48,796 nucleotides of DNA from positions 1 to 48,796 of IMG/VR virus record IMGVR_UViG_3300048853_000015. The stretch is one strand, 5' to 3'. The notes below the pieces were generated by a model. That model saw nothing but the letters and a program-made list of their open reading frames with translations, was not told the origin of the DNA and ran no database searches. Shown here one piece after another: positions 30,430-41,250 of this stretch (its first letter is position 1; each line of letters starts with the position of its first letter). Made by a program: the position numbers and the translations under genes. Source of the stretch: a virus. Its lineage: Duplodnaviria; Caudoviricetes.

Positions 30430-30878
30430 GCAGCCTCTCCTATCATGTCCAATAGATCGCCCTGGATGGGGGTGAAGAATTTCGTCGACAGCAGCACGAC
30501 CAAGACCTTCCATGTCTCGATCCCGAGCCGCATTGCCTTTGCCTTGCGCCGGAGGCTGCCGAGGTCTATCGCGTCGAAGTCCTGCGTCAGTGTCGGCCGG
30601 CGGGTGAGGTCGGGATTGCGCTCGATCAGATGGGAAACGGCCGTGATCATGTCGGCGTAGAGTTCAGCCGCATTCGACCGCGTTCCGGTCATCAGCATGA
30701 GGACGAGCTTCAGGTGATCCTCGCCATGTTCCCGACCGATGTCGCGCACGGTGGGCTTGCAGTAGCACTCGAAGGGCTTCCGGCTGGTCGGGCTGTGCAA
30801 ATGCCCGTCGCGCAGGATCACGCCGCACTGACGGGCAACCTTGTAGATGTCGCATCGGCGGGCGCGAGTGTCTGTCAT
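30426..30878 (-). CDS. Conserved-looking phage hypothetical protein
   Basis: ATGA coupling; HGEDHLKLVL motif. Confidence 0.65.
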   Translation of the reverse strand: MTDTRARRCDIYKVARQCGVILRDGHLHSPTSRKPFECYCKPTVRDIGREHGEDHLKLVLMLMTGTRSNAAELYADMITAVSHLIERNPDLTRRPTLTQDFDAIDLGSLRRKAKAMRLGIETWKVLVVLLSTKFFTPIQGDLLDMIGEAA

Positions 30879-31396
30879 TCCGCCTTCCCCAAGTGATACC
30901 GGACGGTGTTCGGCGTGACGCCGATGGCCTCGGCTATTTTCGAGTAGTTCACCCCATCGGCGCGCATCCGGCGCATTGTCTCGACTGCTTCGGGCGTGAC
31001 CGGCCGCTCTGGGGATCTGCCCTTGAACGATGCGAAGAGGTCGCGAATTGAATTTGCTCGGCGGTTGAACAGGTCGCCAAGGCGTCTCGCGTTGGCATGG
31101 GGCCATCTTTCCTTGACCTCCATCAGGATCTGATTGCGGAGCGCCGCTGCCCGATGAGTGAGCCGCTCTGCGGTGATGTCCTTGTATTGAACCCTCATCT
31201 GCTGGCAGCGGATCTTGATGAACTCGTTCTGCTGGTCGCGGGTGGTTTGCTTGAACCGGCTGGCTTCGGCCGGCGGTGGCGGGGGTGCCTCTACCCGGAG
31301 CATGACGCGCTTTGGCTCGCCTCTGAGCCTATTTGCTACGGCGGCGTAATGGCGGTTGAGCGCAGCTTCGAACGGGGTTGGAACGTGGATAGTCAT
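30875..31396 (-). CDS. DnaA domain-IV-like plus HTH DNA-binding protein
   Basis: RNQILMEV...RLGDLFNRRANSI resembles the DnaA C-terminal domain; C-terminal YSKIAEAIGVTPNTVRYHL. Confidence 0.55.
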   Translation of the reverse strand: MTIHVPTPFEAALNRHYAAVANRLRGEPKRVMLRVEAPPPPPAEASRFKQTTRDQQNEFIKIRCQQMRVQYKDITAERLTHRAAALRNQILMEVKERWPHANARRLGDLFNRRANSIRDLFASFKGRSPERPVTPEAVETMRRMRADGVNYSKIAEAIGVTPNTVRYHLGKAE

Positions 31397-31886: not shown

Positions 31887-32674
31887 ACGCCGCACATCCC
31901 TTCGCATTCGTTGATGAACATGTTGAGCTGACCGCGATCCTCGGCGGTCGAAAGATCGACTTCTGAGAGAGGCACCAGGGAAGGATGAATGAACGGTGTG
32001 CCGCGAAGCAGCACTCTGTCTTCCCGGATCATCTCATCAAAGCGAACCGCTTCTTCCCACGAGCACCGATCATTCGCTTTCATGTCCCGCCACATGGCAT
32101 CGCTGTGAAACGGGCAGAAGGTGCAGGCGCTCTTGGGCGCGCGGGGATACTGGCGTTCCTCCTTCCACTTCAGGCAGTCCCGGCGAGACATACGCATCTC
32201 AATCAGTGGCCAGCGATGCTCCACGAATGACAGCCGTGACGGCTTCATGCGGGATGCTTCATCAAGCGAAATGCCAATCCACTGGATGACCTTGACCGTC
32301 TTCGGGCCACGTTGCCGAGGCTTCAAGCCGATCAGTTCGCGGACCTTCTTTTGGATCGGGATGATCTTGTAATCCTGCGTGCACTGCCGGTTGCTGAACC
32401 CCTTTGAGCCGTTCGGGTTTAGGATATGGAAAGGGGGGCTGCCGCTCGTCTTGCCCCTCTTCATATCCTCAACGATATTGCCGGCCGCGACCCGGTGGAC
32501 CGGGAAAGGCAATTGCTTCTCAAGCCATTCAAGATGCTGGTAGACCACCTTGGGCTCTGCGCCGGTGTCCGCGAAGATCGCGCAATCAGGCATTGGGCCG
32601 ATATCGCCGCGTGCGGCCATCAGAGCGAGGGTGGTGGACTGAACGCCAGCCCCAAGGGAAATGACGTTCATCAT
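31883..32674 (-). CDS. PAPS-reductase-like / PP-loop family protein
   Basis: ISLGAGVQST, IFADTGAE, RQCT, KSACTFCPF, ECEGMCGV motifs. Confidence 0.75.
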   Translation of the reverse strand: MMNVISLGAGVQSTTLALMAARGDIGPMPDCAIFADTGAEPKVVYQHLEWLEKQLPFPVHRVAAGNIVEDMKRGKTSGSPPFHILNPNGSKGFSNRQCTQDYKIIPIQKKVRELIGLKPRQRGPKTVKVIQWIGISLDEASRMKPSRLSFVEHRWPLIEMRMSRRDCLKWKEERQYPRAPKSACTFCPFHSDAMWRDMKANDRCSWEEAVRFDEMIREDRVLLRGTPFIHPSLVPLSEVDLSTAEDRGQLNMFINECEGMCGV

Positions 32675-34155
32675 AGCATCCGCTCCTGGTCTACCGCCGG
32701 CCGTTCGGACACGTAGCGCGTGAGGCGCGCATCGAACCCGACGTGTTTCTTGGCGGTAGCATCGCCAAAGCGAAGCTTCAGACAGCCCAGTTCCGCCCTG
32801 CCCTCGACATCCCCTCCGAACGTCTGCCGGAAACGGGCCCGGATGGCGTCGGCCTCGTTGGAGTCCTTGGCCGTGTCCAGTTGCCGGTTCATGTGGAGCT
32901 CGGCGCGGTAGAGATAAAAGATCGTGTCGAAGGGCTGGCGCGCTGCCTCTCCGCCGTAAAGGTCCGCGGCGATCGGCCGGGGATTGTCGCGGCGCATGCC
33001 GGAGCCGGAGCGCTGCTGCAGGACGAGGACGGCCGCGCCCGTATCCTTGGCGAGAGACTTCAGCCGCTGCGCGATCGTCAGGGCCTTGGTTCCCTCGTCA
33101 GCGGGGCCACCGTCCCATTTGATCGCCCGGATATGGTCTATCACCACAAGCGGCGTCTTGCCGTTGGCGTTCTTCTTGATGAAGCGCTTTGCCTTGACGC
33201 AGAGCTTCTCGACGGTGTCCTTCTCGCCGCAGTCGATGACCTCGAAAGGCTTCTGGAATATCTTGCGGGCGAAGGCGTAGCATTCCTCGACCTCGTTCTG
33301 ATTGAGGAGGTTCTCGAGCTGTCGCCGGAGCTCAGTTCCAAGGTTCTGGGCCGCCATCTGGGCGACACACTCTTCGCGGGTCTGGTCGTAGCTGAGTATG
33401 AGAACGGGGTGGCCGGCCTCGATCGCCGCATAGACGATCTGCATGGTGAGGCTGGTCTTGCCCTCGCCGCTGCTCGACAGGAGGCCTATCAACCGTTTCT
33501 CGCGGAACAGGTGGTCACTCAGAACGACTTGCAGTTCCTTGAGGGGGATGGGCACGCCGACGCTGGAGTCGCTCGTGCGGCCGCTTGTGATCGCCTTGAG
33601 ATAGGCTTCCGCCGCATCGTCGCTGCGCTGCTCGTCGCCCTCCAAGGCCTTTACTACATCTTCGAACTTGCCGCGTAGCGCGTCGACCTGATCCATGAAG
33701 TCGACATCCGGGGAATAGGCCACCTCGTCCATCTTCTCGCCGAGGGAGACGCAGGCCCGCCGCGCGGCCGCATCGATCACGGCATATGCGAAGTGCGGAG
33801 CGTTGACGACAGAGACGGCATTGGAAGCCAGATAGGCGAGGTATTGCGCCGTGGTCATATCCCCGACAGTGCCGGCGGTGACCAAGTTCTTCATCGTGAC
33901 GGCGCTGATGAGGCGGCCGGAGCGCCGCTGATCGAGCATGGCCTCGAATATCTCGCCGTGCAGGCGTTCGAAGAAATGCCGGTGTTCCAAGGATGACGGG
34001 ATGGCGTCGAGCGCGTCGTTGTTGACGAGGATGGCGCCAAGCAGCGCCTGCTCCGCCTCCAGGTTATTCGGCAGCTCCCGCAGGGTCTCGCGGCCTCCGC
34101 CAATTCCATGCATTGCCCTCTCGGCTTCGGAGAGGTCTCGGGCGTGAACGTTCAT
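32671..34155 (-). CDS. dnaB: DnaB-like replicative helicase
   Basis: LPNNLEAEQALLGAIL; Walker A SSGEGKTS; VVIDHI; LYRAE; KLRFG. Confidence 0.85.
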   Translation of the reverse strand: MNVHARDLSEAERAMHGIGGGRETLRELPNNLEAEQALLGAILVNNDALDAIPSSLEHRHFFERLHGEIFEAMLDQRRSGRLISAVTMKNLVTAGTVGDMTTAQYLAYLASNAVSVVNAPHFAYAVIDAAARRACVSLGEKMDEVAYSPDVDFMDQVDALRGKFEDVVKALEGDEQRSDDAAEAYLKAITSGRTSDSSVGVPIPLKELQVVLSDHLFREKRLIGLLSSSGEGKTSLTMQIVYAAIEAGHPVLILSYDQTREECVAQMAAQNLGTELRRQLENLLNQNEVEECYAFARKIFQKPFEVIDCGEKDTVEKLCVKAKRFIKKNANGKTPLVVIDHIRAIKWDGGPADEGTKALTIAQRLKSLAKDTGAAVLVLQQRSGSGMRRDNPRPIAADLYGGEAARQPFDTIFYLYRAELHMNRQLDTAKDSNEADAIRARFRQTFGGDVEGRAELGCLKLRFGDATAKKHVGFDARLTRYVSERPAVDQERML

Positions 34156-34718: not shown

Positions 34719-35380
34719 GCCGCCACCGCCTTTTTCTGCGCGGCCGCTCCGGTGCGCAGCTCCATGAACCGCTGCTGCATCCATCCGATCGCCGGCACGT
34801 CGCACTTGTGCCAGCATGTGCAGACACCGACCGCTTCGGCCGCGTCCTTCTGGTCTTTCTTCGTCGAGGGAAGTTTGATGCCTTCGAGCTCGCAGCTATC
34901 AATGGCGGCCTGTTTCCAGTCGGGCTTGCCGTCCTTCAATTCACCGGTGCGGCGGTCGCGGATCTTCTCGACTGGCGGCTTGAAGCCCTTCCCGAAATAA
35001 ACCGGGCGCCAGGAGGTGGCGGCGATCGTGCCGTAAGGAACCTTCATCAGCATGCAGATGCCGATGGCGGCGCCGGCGATGCCTGTGAGCTGCAGCGCGG
35101 CCGGGTTGATCGTCATGACCGAGGCCTGTTGCCCGGTGAGATCGGGGCGCCCCTGCTTATTGAACTGGCGGACGCCATGTTCTGGGCGCTCGATCGCGAC
35201 GAAGTCGGGACGGTAGCGCTTGACGAGCGGATAGAAGAGGTTCGCGAAGATGGCGTATTTCTCTTCCCAGTCATATTCGGAGACCGAGATAACGCCGGTT
35301 TCGATGCTTGAGCGGTGGCGATCACTATCGCGGACGGCCCAGCCGGAATTCGATGACAGGTCGAGGCCCATGATGATCAT
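34715..35380 (-). CDS. RuvC-like Holliday junction resolvase
   Basis: IMGLDLSSNSGWA, VAIERP, DAAEAVG acidic triad. Confidence 0.7.
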   Translation of the reverse strand: MIIMGLDLSSNSGWAVRDSDRHRSSIETGVISVSEYDWEEKYAIFANLFYPLVKRYRPDFVAIERPEHGVRQFNKQGRPDLTGQQASVMTINPAALQLTGIAGAAIGICMLMKVPYGTIAATSWRPVYFGKGFKPPVEKIRDRRTGELKDGKPDWKQAAIDSCELEGIKLPSTKKDQKDAAEAVGVCTCWHKCDVPAIGWMQQRFMELRTGAAAQKKAVAA

Positions 35381-35997
35381 GCCCGCACCCTCCAGCAGAT
35401 CGCCGCATGCGCTTCGCAATACGGGCCCCGGTAGACAGGGGCGCCGCAGCAGGCCATATCGGGTCCGGGCTGATCACCTGATGCCGATACGGGGAACTTG
35501 CATTCCTTGGCCTTCAGTGAGGCGAAGGCGACAGGTTCACGGCCTAGAAGCTGATAGCGCCGGCCGTCGTAGAGCGATGTCGCTTCGATCTCTTCGAACA
35601 GAGCGTCGACATCGACCACCTTCCTCGCCTTCATCCGCTCACGCTTCGGGAAGCGAGCCCGGAACCGCCGGGTGATGTCCGACAGGGCGGCCTTGGTAAC
35701 TCCGAAGCGCTCGGCGATCTCGTCTGCGTGGACGCCTTCATTCCAGAGACGGCTTGCGGCATCGATCCGAGCCTCGGTCCATGCCGAATGAACCCGACCC
35801 TTGCCGAACCTCTCGGTTGCCGTATTCCTGGGGGAGAAGACATCGCGATTGCGGCTCACATAGCCGGACACGGCGCCGCGCGAGATGCAGAAGTGCTCCG
35901 CAATCTGCTTCATGGACTTGCCGTCGCGCCAGAGTTCGACCGCCTCGGCGTGGTTATCGTCATTCCAGATGTGGGTGCTCTGCAGCATTGCGCTCAC
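35377..35997 (-). CDS. GcrA-like regulator with duplicated HTH
   Basis: Two W...LW..G...IAE.F HTH units; C-terminal CKFPV...CCGAP...PYCEAH. Confidence 0.75.
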   Translation of the reverse strand: MSAMLQSTHIWNDDNHAEAVELWRDGKSMKQIAEHFCISRGAVSGYVSRNRDVFSPRNTATERFGKGRVHSAWTEARIDAASRLWNEGVHADEIAERFGVTKAALSDITRRFRARFPKRERMKARKVVDVDALFEEIEATSLYDGRRYQLLGREPVAFASLKAKECKFPVSASGDQPGPDMACCGAPVYRGPYCEAHAAICWRVRA

Positions 35998-36076: not shown

Positions 36077-36898
36077 TCAGATGACGGGATCGGGGCTCAC
36101 TTCGACGCGGCCAACGAACGTCATGTTGTTCTGCGCGCAGTAGCGGCGGAATGCGGCCTCGTGCAGCTCGCCGGGAAGCATGTCGATGGAGTGCCCGAGT
36201 GTGCCGCCCTTCCACGATCCCTTGCGGCGGCCGGTCTCTTTCGAAAATCTGATATCGAGATCGCGGCGAACCTTTGCGCGACGGAAGAGCGAGAGCCACT
36301 TGAACCAACCCGTTCCGAACCGCCACTCCCGCTCTTCGATGATCGTCCGGGCGAAGATGCGCTCGCCGTCGAAGTCGTCGAATTCAAACGAGGTGGAGGG
36401 GCATTGCTCCTTGGCGTCGATGCCGGCTCGGACTTTCCCTAGGGTGTCTCGGCAGTCCTTTTCGGGATCGGTCCAGAAGTGACCTCCGTCGAGGCCATAG
36501 AGGCTATGCCGGATGAACCGCCATTGCGTCCAAGGCAGGAAGCAACCCCAACGTTGTTCGGTGCTGCTATCGTGCGTCTGTCGACCGAGACTGACGTTCA
36601 GGTGGCCTTCGAAAATGGAGAACCCGTATTCTCTCGCGTGCTCAGCCCAGTAACCCTTATTCGGGGATGTCGACCACTCATAACGGGACGTGTCGACCCA
36701 AGTGCGCGACGGCTTGAGGATCGACGGGAGTTCTATAATCAGGGTATGCCCGAAAGCTGAGAGGCGGAGATTGCAGCCAGGATATTCGTCGTGGCCAGAG
36801 CCGAGGATTACCGAAAATGGCCGGTAGCTCTTGCTGTACGCATATGTGAACGGTCCAGCGTGGCGATCATTGTCGCCCCATCGACGAACGTTTCTCAT
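36077..36898 (-). CDS. Trp-rich hypothetical protein
   Basis: 273-aa ORF coupled by an ATGA overlap. Confidence 0.65.
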   Translation of the reverse strand: MRNVRRWGDNDRHAGPFTYAYSKSYRPFSVILGSGHDEYPGCNLRLSAFGHTLIIELPSILKPSRTWVDTSRYEWSTSPNKGYWAEHAREYGFSIFEGHLNVSLGRQTHDSSTEQRWGCFLPWTQWRFIRHSLYGLDGGHFWTDPEKDCRDTLGKVRAGIDAKEQCPSTSFEFDDFDGERIFARTIIEEREWRFGTGWFKWLSLFRRAKVRRDLDIRFSKETGRRKGSWKGGTLGHSIDMLPGELHEAAFRRYCAQNNMTFVGRVEVSPDPVI

Positions 36899-39361: not shown

Positions 39362-39435
39362 GTTATAGTGGGAAACATCCCACTATGCAATAGGAAACTT
39401 CCCATTCGCCAACGATAGTGGAAAAAACCTATGTT
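39362..39435. promoter_or_regulatory. OR-like operators with divergent promoters
   Basis: Perfect inverted repeat ATAGTGGGA-AACA-TCCCACTAT (39365-39386); second site 39389-39406; degenerate third site near 39416-39433; minus-strand TTGCAT-N17-TATAAC (39390-39362). Confidence 0.8.
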
Positions 39436-39441
39436 CGCGGC

Positions 39442-40206
39442 ATGCCGAGTCTGAAAGAAATCGTTGAAAACCGCCTCTCTGAGCTGGGTCTGGGCCCGGT
39501 CGAGGCAGCCGTGCACGGCGGCATCGAGCGCACCTTCATTCGCGATATCGTCGAGGGGAAGAAGAAGTCTGTCCGATCGGACAAAATGGCGGCCCTGGCG
39601 CGAGCCTTGAGGTTGGATGCAGCGGCTTTAGCGAGAAACGAGATGGTGCGCTTGAACGGTGACGCCGGGCCCACGCTCGTTGCCAGTTACGATCCTGACG
39701 CCGATGATAGCGCACCGCAGGGATACTCTCGCGAGCATTGGCGCGCTCACGTCAAAGGCGCGATTCCAGAAATCGACGTGAAGTTGGGCGCGGGTGAGGG
39801 ATCGATCGGAGGCGTGATCAACCTACCGGTCAGCTCGTCGAGCATGTCTGGACATCAAGTGGTTGCCGAGTGGCTGATCCCCGACGCCTACCTACGGAAT
39901 GAAGTCCGCGCTTCACCGTCGCATACGCTGATCATGGAGGTAGTGGGTGATTCTATGTTCCCGACATACTCGCCGGGGGATCGCGTGATCGTCGATTTGT
40001 CTCAGGACAGGTTGGTTTCAGACACGGTTTACGCGATCAGCGATGGATACTCAGAGCCGCAAATTAAGCGCCTGCAGCGCGTTCCTTTCAGCGAGCCGAC
40101 TGAGGTCCGGATCATCTCCGACAACCCGAACCTTGAGACGTTCACCGTCGAGCTGTCGCGCGTGCAGATCATCGGCAGGATCTGCGGTCACATCGCCAGA
40201 AAATAG
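39442..40206 (+). CDS. cI: CI-like repressor (HTH + S24 autopeptidase)
   Basis: N-terminal HTH; LGAG cleavage region; VVGDSMFP (Ser); IKRL (Lys). Confidence 0.9.
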   Translation: MPSLKEIVENRLSELGLGPVEAAVHGGIERTFIRDIVEGKKKSVRSDKMAALARALRLDAAALARNEMVRLNGDAGPTLVASYDPDADDSAPQGYSREHWRAHVKGAIPEIDVKLGAGEGSIGGVINLPVSSSSMSGHQVVAEWLIPDAYLRNEVRASPSHTLIMEVVGDSMFPTYSPGDRVIVDLSQDRLVSDTVYAISDGYSEPQIKRLQRVPFSEPTEVRIISDNPNLETFTVELSRVQIIGRICGHIARK

Positions 40207-40563
40207 TCACTCTCGTAAAAACCTCTCATCTCTCGTCCGGATATCGGCAACAACGATCCCCACAACCAGGGCATCGAATTGCTTCCGGCTGAGACATTGG
40301 GGCCTCGATCTTCGGTTTTCCTGGGAGAGTCTTAGGCCACCCGCCCCGTCAAACGAGCTGCTGACGCGATACAGGTCGACTCCAGTTCCGATGTCCACTA
40401 GGTAAACGCCCTCTCCCTCGTATGAAGCTACCGGCGCCAAAAGCGCGTAATCTCGGCCGCTGCGGAGCGTTGGCTCCATCGAGTCCGTCTGCACCGCATG
40501 CACGCGGAAGCGACTCGAAAGGACATTTTCAGGCGGTATATCCGGAATGCGAAACTCATACAT
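40207..40563 (-). CDS. Stand-alone S24/CI-CTD-like protein lacking the HTH and catalytic Lys
   Basis: VQTDSMEPTL...GEGVYLV...LYRV...LSQEN...VVGIV; SD GAGGG. Confidence 0.65.
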   Translation of the reverse strand: MYEFRIPDIPPENVLSSRFRVHAVQTDSMEPTLRSGRDYALLAPVASYEGEGVYLVDIGTGVDLYRVSSSFDGAGGLRLSQENRRSRPQCLSRKQFDALVVGIVVADIRTRDERFLRE

Positions 40564-40863
40564 TTGGCCCTCGCTGAAATTGCGCTCCCAAGCGGCGCAG
40601 GAGCAACGTTAGCGCAGCCGGTGGTCTTGGCGAGGCAAATTTTTTTGACGCGAAGTGTCATACTTTTCGCAACCGAAAACAGAACGCTTCAACTTTTAAG
40701 ACAGTTTTGTGACAAGCCGCTAAGTTTCGACCGTCAGATTTTTGGGGTTCCATGAGCGATGGTTAAAGAGGCGAATAGCTCAACGCGGAATACATCCCAA
40801 TGCGAGGCATGTTCTATGGTTGTGCCAGTGGATCACATTTCTGTGAGATGGGTAATCTGGAGT

Positions 40864-41155
40864 TAGAGAGACCATTAAACCTCGACTCTCTCTACGTACC
40901 TTTCCTTGAACATCTGAGGTTCTGAACTTGAGAGAGGGAGGGAGTGAAGGCAAAGCTTCCCCCTACCCCATGGATCAAGTCCAAGAGGCGGGGAAAGCGT
41001 TACCTTAGCTTCTGAACCATCGGTCGGTCGGTCGCTATTGGCAGAACCGCTTCTCAGTCGGCTCGTCCTCATTTTCTGGCAGCACAGTAGGACTCACGCT
41101 TCCCGCGCCGTGGGCTTCACCAGCTCGGGAGTTGCACCCGGTCGCCCATCGATCG
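40864..41155 (-). ncRNA. Candidate structured ncRNA
   Basis: 60-nt hairpin at 40947-41006 with G-U pairs on the minus strand only, further stems, and an upstream minus-strand TTGACA at 41191-41186. Confidence 0.5.
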
Positions 41156-41157
41156 AC

Positions 41158-41250
41158 GGTAGGAATAATCCCTTCCATCCCACTCTGTCAAAAGAAAAAT
41201 AGGAAATGTCCCACTTTCCTATTTACAGGTAGGAATTTTCCCACTACATT
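41158..41250. promoter_or_regulatory. OL-like operators and rightward early promoter
   Basis: 18-bp sites at 41158-41175, 41198-41215 and 41228-41245 match the OR sites; TTTACA-N17-TACATT at 41222-41250. Confidence 0.8.

Follow-up and report, generated by a model that had tools for sequence, protein, structure and literature searches.

A non-coding element of ~230 nt on the minus strand of a temperate phage genome (41148-40918) is confirmed as a real conserved element with a predicted RNA fold, and the comparison with related phages indicates with good confidence that it is an origin module. That this element forms the RNA half of the phage replication origin, replacing the initiator protein and opening the DNA via its own template strand, is probable, with somewhat less assurance; as the RNA stands in the slot of an initiator and its binding sites, it likely starts DNA copying in the protein's stead. 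A more specific reading, in which an RNA-guided initiator would use a self-targeting loop to read a re-programmable origin address of ~22 bases and open the DNA for the helicase, is offered tentatively, and it is just as tentatively suggested that such an initiator may be a plug-in module swapped with lambda O-type proteins as well as with one or more other RNA families. The initial annotation had proposed an RNA-dependent origin working with DnaB and without an initiator, which comparative genomics, in the form of slot alternation and the loss of O-like proteins, strongly supports.

The window (the whole stretch of 48,796 nt that was analysed) is a complete genome (direct terminal repeats, 100% complete) of a temperate phage of rhizobia-type bacteria. 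Its layout is lambdoid, with a minus-strand cro-side operon including DnaB, a CI-like S24 repressor, an ORF that consists only of an S24-like C-terminal domain (S24-CTD) and a non-coding stretch, beyond which lie pL and then an operon with RecT and integrase. This stretch had been described as ~600 bp without a credible gene, and a 65-aa ORF inside the element indeed has no Pfam match. The features around the RNA are the following:

32671..34152, minus strand: divergent DnaB-like helicase (Pfam DnaB and DnaB_C), the predicted partner in an initiator-less replication module
39418..40206, plus strand: CI-like repressor with an S24 domain, convergent with the RNA
41162..41191, minus strand: predicted RNA promoter (TTGACA 41191-41186, 18-bp spacer, TATTCC 41167-41162), divergent from pL
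41157-41176, 41197-41216 and 41227-41246, no strand assigned: three operator-like 20-bp palindromes, which match those before cI

Pfam searches on 108 window ORFs together with six-frame searches agree with the earlier statement that the phage has a DnaB and no O-like initiator, primase or polymerase. Pfam found no primase, polymerase, reverse transcriptase or initiator among the 108 ORFs, nor the polymerase, primase and clamp of a T4-type replisome, and a reverse transcriptase that could point to a retron or DRT partner is equally missing from 46 neighbouring ORFs. The six-frame searches returned neither DUF1376 nor HTH_36 in the window, an HMM of the mini-initiators described below gave no match either, and a winged-helix initiator with tandem iterons is absent from the window. 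GC skew in the window tracks transcription and was left unused as origin evidence. The early rightward operon also encodes a protein (36077-36898, minus strand) that Pfam matches strongly to the CBASS inhibitor Acb3 (E 1e-88).

Conservation and predicted fold of the element

Pattern scans recovered 59 distinct copies of the RNA (alignment A2) and 37 more, giving a family of 96 distinct copies whose named hosts are nearly all Rhizobiales; the false pattern matches L062, L106, L116 and L122, which have no model match, were dropped. Similarly, 21 of 24 GTDB matches are real, all of them labelled Alphaproteobacteria and nearly all Rhizobiales. Conservation spans ~41148 to ~40918, with flanks that are unrelated among homologs, and the RNA is located beside pL in lambdoid prophages, where its commonest neighbour is a cI/S24 ORF (34 of 59 loci). 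A degenerate copy without U1 and without the 5' strand of P7 (L110:3989-4200), possibly a dead origin, was kept in A2 and omitted from the counts over 58 copies. Distant blastn searches matched the 5' part to a Pseudochrobactrum prophage and to two phage isolates catalogued under Synechococcus, every time beside a RecT operon. Among 50,697 phage records, only L035 (OM868082) and PP438429 have the divergent DnaB; both also carry the Rhizobiales-type RNA, and the Synechococcus host under which they were deposited may be wrong.

The Rfam comparison suggested in the initial annotation returned no known family, as the window has no match in Rfam 15 at gathering and yields chance matches only at E ≤ 10. 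A search of the openly accessible literature gave no description of the element, nor of an RNA replacing a prophage initiator. The RNA family appears to be new and uncatalogued in Rfam 15, resembling an R-loop origin in its predicted action and lying outside the ColE1 and T4 families. Its parts, in the 5' to 3' direction of the predicted transcript, are:

41111..41148, minus strand: helix P1 (41148-41144 with 41115-41111), which encloses hairpin P2
41065..41109, minus strand: doubly pseudoknotted core, from covariation over 59 copies
41098..41104, minus strand: G1 (GGGAAGC), identical to G2 and, in the early fold, the partner of the C-run
41044..41064, minus strand: hairpin P5, with a GNRA loop in most homologs
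41010..41043, minus strand: X1 (UGCC) and unit U1, a large loop with words A and B (GGUUCAG 41018-41012), the predicted guide
40947..41006, minus strand: long hairpin P7, which excludes the helix of G1 with the C-run
40918..40946, minus strand: unit U2, a pyrimidine tract and word B (GUUCAG 40927-40922), the predicted DNA target and conserved 3' border
40860..40921, minus strand: AT-/purine-rich tract, the predicted unwinding and helicase-loading region, conserved in composition and not in sequence

A 48-pair model with two pseudoknots has 94.1% of cells paired, and 27 of its 48 pairs show two-sided changes; not one of 500 shuffles attains this and slid controls give 43-53%, so that the covariation check called for earlier came out in favour of a fold. 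The stability of the whole 306 nt is ordinary (folding z = -1.0), and the case for an RNA therefore rests on covariation. The hairpin at 41006-40947 folds as it was originally drawn, including its four G-U pairs, and reaches z = -4.84 on the minus strand (0/200 shuffles as stable) and -2.17 on the plus strand. The structure first proposed holds in part: its CGGG/CCCG and GUCCU/AGGAC stems covary over the 59 copies and stand together with this hairpin, whereas both pseudoknots, the alternative fold and the words of U1 and U2 were missing from it. Two further stems of that structure were lost, namely UUCUG/CAGAA, with 69.8% of cells paired and 491 of 500 shuffles equally good, and UAGAGAGA/UCUCUCUA, which lies past the conserved 3' border, in a region without sequence similarity among homologs.

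Two-sided changes affect four of the five pairs of P1 and two of the four pairs of P2. Hairpin P2 carries the loop UGCAACU (41136-41130), which we take to be a T-loop, and a CUGG strand (41123-41120) that belongs to pseudoknot 1, where it pairs with CCAG (41079-41076) and the pair 41122/41077 has 23 two-sided changes. The core helix, GGCGC (41109-41105) with GUGCU (41085-41081), is 98% paired and has one-sided changes only; the core also holds P4 (GUCCU/AGGAC), and its lone closing pair 41086-41072 is paired in all 59 copies with 33 two-sided changes. The long hairpin P7 contains the C-run (40998-40990), the G-tract GGGGUAGGGGG (40969-40959), G2 (40961-40955) and X2 (40952-40949). An alternative helix of G1 with the C-run, incompatible with P7, is 93.7% paired with 54 two-sided cells; in predicted folding, this helix forms in 55 of 58 copies when the transcript is cut after the C-run, and P7 forms in 56 of 58 when the transcript is complete.

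Initiator loss and exchange at the probable origin slot

Lambdoid prophages are taken to initiate replication by means of a protein initiator acting on iterons. About 18 kb of the rightward operon was read in 43 RNA-bearing phages and in 20 RNA-less phages, the latter picked through the S24-CTD gene and including many close kin. Consistent with the proposal that the motif co-occurs with initiator-less DnaB phages, 24 of the 43 RNA-bearing phages have DnaB and no initiator, while 13 have only a short C-terminal initiator piece (118-159 aa), three have a full DUF1376 initiator and three are unclear. The short proteins (L132:13180-13590, L308:10445-10843 and 11 others) match the C-terminal part of O-like initiators only, occur in phages without DnaB and are candidate loaders of the host helicase. 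Whole-genome searches placed DUF1376 in 3 of the 43 RNA-bearing genomes and HTH_36 over the cut-off in none; in G002, G030 and G036 the RNA looks intact, yet a DUF1376 initiator is also encoded. Full-length initiators (initiator-cluster proteins of 246-306 aa) are present in 16 of the 20 RNA-less phages, with DUF1376 confirmed in G013, G048 and G050, a weak Phage_rep_org_N match only in G011 and no Pfam match for the initiator-cluster proteins of G055 and G059. The RNA-less exceptions have other modules in the slot, which is filled by a second non-coding element of ~500-570 bp in G060 and G062, and by an HTH_36 ORF of ~110 aa, with two iterons and then an AT-rich tract behind it, in G061 and G063.

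Some observations that first seemed to speak against an origin were set aside. Initiator-like PHROG matches had been noted in G001 (a 234-aa protein, left without a class), G002 and G008, and the G008 proteins are C-terminal domains only; the RNA-less relative G015 proved to have the second element in its slot. An analogy with a CCCCTACCCC motif, present in only 1 of 26 initiator-cluster genes, was dropped. The RNA-bearing phages may have an initiator that belongs to no recognised family; one candidate is the phrog_22699 ORF, for which an ESM Atlas search gave no usable lead. Neither the RNA nor the second element occurs in any of 25 loci chosen through a DUF1376 initiator, and the slot may be missing from some of them because only 15 of the 25 extend to a cI-like gene.

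Exchange of modules is most evident in 63 viral loci that were collected through a neighbouring gene of the DnaB module, with query alignments largely from RNA-bearing phages. All 63 have DnaB and none matched the O-type N-terminus. The slot holds the RNA in 14 loci (11 of them already known beforehand) and a winged-helix initiator ORF in 24 (21 by HMM and 3 by eye); 17 loci have the second element there, 5 have other non-coding DNA, and in 3 the slot is unseen. No locus has two slot modules, and for the RNA against the initiator Fisher p = 4.6e-4. Two slot ORFs that were checked pass the HTH_36 cut-off, with weak DnaD_N matches in both and Phage_rep_O and RepL matches in one, and in 14/14 loci read the winged-helix ORF precedes a tandem pair of iteron-like repeats and an AT-rich tract. 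Such stand-alone mini-initiators of HTH_36 type (~100-125 aa) lie beside pL in L028:1908-2330, L031:1918-2340 and 24 of L368-L430, and a conserved CTTGCTCTGA motif follows the mini-initiator, iterons and AT tract in 11 of 12 loci read. In these relatives, the origin-binding domain is relocated away from the replication operon.

On a quick maximum-likelihood tree of DnaB with 56 rows, built after short matches, 4 duplicates and 3 unassigned loci had been removed, the RNA label changes at least 11 times and clusters no more strongly than in shuffles. Almost identical DnaBs accompany different modules, with the RNA in L374, a protein in L375 and the second element in L376/L378; the DnaBs of L428 and L429 are identical. 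Homology among L374, L375 and L376 stops at the pL leader, just ahead of the module.

The second element (L021:2190-2670; also L009, L027, L030 and 17 of L368-L430) is ~500-570 bp long, unrelated to the RNA and found in the same origin slot of initiator-less phages, with a partial match in Brucella phage BiPBO1 and no match in Rfam; it is probably a second origin RNA family. There are further non-coding slot elements: L424:3960-4330 starts with the P1-P2 part of the RNA and then diverges into a motif common to L418:6340-6500, and L389:6300-6560 and L401/L402:5300-5700 have another motif in common.

An ORF at 30875-31396 (minus strand), regarded at first as a conceivable initiator, encodes a DnaA-domain-IV-like HTH protein (lead-level score). 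Its family occurs with every type of slot module (protein-type 19/24, second element 10/17, RNA 7/14), and because it accompanies all of them the ORF is not a hidden substitute initiator. A GcrA-like protein is encoded at 35377-35997 (minus strand), and both proteins are possible modulators of the host cell cycle.

Duplicated words, control and alternative explanations

Among the columns with the strongest covariation are pairs whose bases are identical instead of complementary, and the 3' segments G2, X2 and U2 duplicate the 5' segments G1, X1 and U1. G1 equals G2 within a copy in 49 of 58 cases, compared with 20.5% between copies (73 of 91 within copies in an enlarged set). Similarly, word B is the same in U1 and U2 in 56 of 58 copies, compared with 28.5% between copies, and takes the form of 11 different 5-mers, in a tally that, like those of covariation, counts non-independent events, the copies being mutually related. 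In the most divergent class, U1 equals U2 plus one extra base per word. Differences between the two units run one way, as a G in U1 stands opposite an A in U2 at 69:0 over 73 distinct U1/U2 pairs, and pyrimidine wobble has no direction (U/C 5, C/U 9). With RNA:RNA parameters, the U1:anti-U2 duplex is better than U2:anti-U1 in 64 of 73 pairs and U1 does best with its own anti-U2; class-1 copies, including that of the window, pair weakly by the same parameters (mean -16.7 kcal/mol, GA opposite GA). Eight copies with mis-anchored U1/U2 were omitted from the G/A, AT-tract and duplex-energy tallies. Co-variation of U1 and U2 and the one-way G/A differences therefore point to the complement of U2 as the partner of U1, which fits pairing most simply with template-strand DNA; if the element is an origin module, pairing of U1 with template DNA is highly likely. 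An antisense RNA as the partner would be expected to leave an identical signature.

Unit U2 is placed where protein-type relatives have iterons. Directly after U2 the AT fraction averages 0.59 over 60 nt, compared with 0.43 for whole loci, and is at least 0.55 in 68 of 84 copies (56% AT in the tract of this phage). DnaA boxes, searched for by motif, are not enriched downstream of the RNA (0.16 vs 0.12 per 300 nt).

In the proposed mechanism, host RNA polymerase would start at the predicted promoter divergent from pL, and the nascent RNA would form a four-way junction in which G1 and X1 are held and U1 is shown in a loop. On emergence of G2 and X2, P7 would form, stripping both off the template and releasing G1 and X1. 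U1, possibly together with the freed G1 and X1, could then anneal to the template strand over U2, G2 and X2 to give a persistent R-loop adjoining the AT-rich tract, and the phage DnaB, or the short loader-like domain of relatives, would load on the displaced strand. DNA opening may be the whole job of the RNA, because the protein part that it replaces is the origin-binding domain; the chances are about even that the RNA 3' end serves as primer in ColE1/T4 style or that the host primase does the priming.

Substitution in the slot would be explained equally well by an origin that acts as DNA or via a protein, where transcription melts or supercoils the DNA, or where a folded single strand or the repeated words are read by a host or phage protein. 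A similar GGGGTA(T/A)GGGG motif lies beside the iterons of protein-type L383 and L398, and direct repeats are the usual form of iterons. However, the T-loop, the GNRA loops, the G-U-tolerant helices and the strand-specific hairpin indicate RNA, and the B words are not phased, because the spacing between the copies varies from ~83 to 96 nt. In addition, no protein family is common to all 11 RNA-bearing genomes compared, and the one-way G/A differences suit pairing rather than protein binding, which leaves this kind of origin unlikely.

The initial annotation had placed a minus-strand TTGACA (41191-41186) ahead of a weak -10 under an operator, and both the -10-like TATTCC and a palindrome covering it (41157-41176) were found. 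A comparable promoter motif occurs at the same position in 25 of 94 homolog upstream regions, with an 18-bp spacer in 21 of these. Palindromes of the same type precede cI (39366-39385 and 39388-39407), and the one at 41227-41246 lies in pL (TTTACA 41222, TACATT 41250, plus strand); from this likeness we infer that CI would bind at the three predicted operators. Of the three operators, the one over the RNA promoter is the most degenerate, and its layout is PRM/OR3-like; downstream of the RNA there are often defence-type cargo genes. For these reasons CI may or may not repress the RNA in the lysogen, where withholding DnaB alone could be enough for control. Loci such as L036, L051, L058 and L038 show the cargo hotspot downstream of the RNA, with DUF5131 accompanied by TcmP, DUF3800, methylases, GmrSD and Macro.

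A two-state leader RNA, an attenuator or antiterminator governing the downstream defence-type cargo, would agree with the exclusive early and late folds, with cargo that includes DUF5131 in 10 of 59 loci as well as methylases and GmrSD, and with an operator layout like that of a lysogen promoter. It is nevertheless improbable, for the next clear gene is convergent in several loci and the window has no sense cargo, P7 is without a following U-tract, and both the exclusion of the initiator and the identity of U1 and U2 would be left unexplained. Still less credible is a trans-acting small RNA, either an antisense RNA like P1 c4 or P4 CI or a decoy, with displayed words that bind a target elsewhere. 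The single-stranded words do differ between phages like specificity determinants, and the RNA is positioned in the immunity region, but searches of the window, of 10 phage contigs and of 3-4 kb in each of 24 loci gave no other site complementary to U1/U2, Rfam gave no c4-type match, and the G/A asymmetry points to U2 as an exact copy of the target.

The alternative raised in the initial annotation, a leader of the S24-CTD-only gene (40207-40563), is extremely unlikely: the RNA lies ~350 nt upstream of this gene on the same strand in the window, and the gene is also present in 2 of 10 whole RNA-bearing phages compared, but the RNA is absent near all 34 homologs of the gene (0/34 loci) and from 5/5 whole genomes tested. 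The S24-CTD-only ORF itself (minus strand) is convergent with cI, conserved in 34 viral loci and possibly an antirepressor or a repressor partner.

Comparison with known systems

An RNA origin module remains the preferred reading, and the comparative data indicate that a protein initiator module was repeatedly exchanged among close relatives for an uncatalogued RNA. This would, if true, account for many Rhizobiales prophages that replicate without a recognisable initiator. The family supplies natural compensatory variants with 11 matched word pairs, which makes the question of R-loop formation directly testable, and a re-programmable address would offer a compact orthogonal replicon part for alphaproteobacteria.

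The phage RNA resembles ColE1 RNA II in the lack of an encoded initiator, in a non-coding transcript from an upstream promoter, and in a fold that governs a persistent RNA:DNA hybrid with the helicase on the displaced strand, which is predicted here (PMC5043065). The trigger of persistent hybrid formation at ColE1 is described as speculative (PMC5043065). The window has no replicon-encoded initiator, and DUF1376 is absent from 40 of 43 RNA-bearing genomes. In contrast to RNA II, the phage RNA is ~230 nt rather than ~550 nt long, has no Rfam match to RNA II or RNA I, belongs to a lambdoid prophage that itself encodes DnaB or a loader-like domain, has a variable loop copying a downstream target and is interchangeable with a protein initiator.

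At the T4 origins oriF and oriG, an R-loop holds the origin open for the phage helicase, as is predicted here, and the published account states that oriF needs a promoter and an AT-rich unwinding element, that T4 R-loops require no specific sequence and ~100 bp is enough, and that what governs the formation of R-loops there is an open question (PMC3016281). The phage element likewise has a predicted promoter followed by an AT-rich element, with the promoter motif clear in 25 of 94 copies. Unlike oriF/oriG, it has a conserved pseudoknotted RNA with matched repeats before the AT tract, and it serves a temperate phage in which neither a polymerase nor a primase is encoded.

Lambda O and the HTH_36 mini-initiators with their iterons occupy the same slot as the RNA, with promoter, recognition module, target and AT-rich tract in the same order, and the mini-initiator relatives have the same DnaB module as the RNA-bearing phages. 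They differ from the phage element in that its recognition is predicted to occur by RNA pairing, with no ORF and no perfect tandem iterons. In FMN and cobalamin riboswitches, a pseudoknot strand comes after a GGUGCAANUCC T-loop hairpin and the 3' region is switchable, as in the phage RNA; no Rfam aptamer matches the phage RNA even at E ≤ 10, and no metabolic or consistent gene class lies downstream. The guide words of IS110 bridge RNAs and TIGR guides are variable, displayed in loops and matched to DNA, as is predicted for the phage RNA. No recombinase or nuclease partner was found for the latter, as its neighbours in 59 loci share only cI and early recombination genes, none of them universal in 11 genomes. 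In contrast to the bridge RNAs and TIGR guides, both words of the phage RNA match the same strand and the target is the RNA's own locus, and there is a fair chance that it represents a new class of guide-like initiator RNA.
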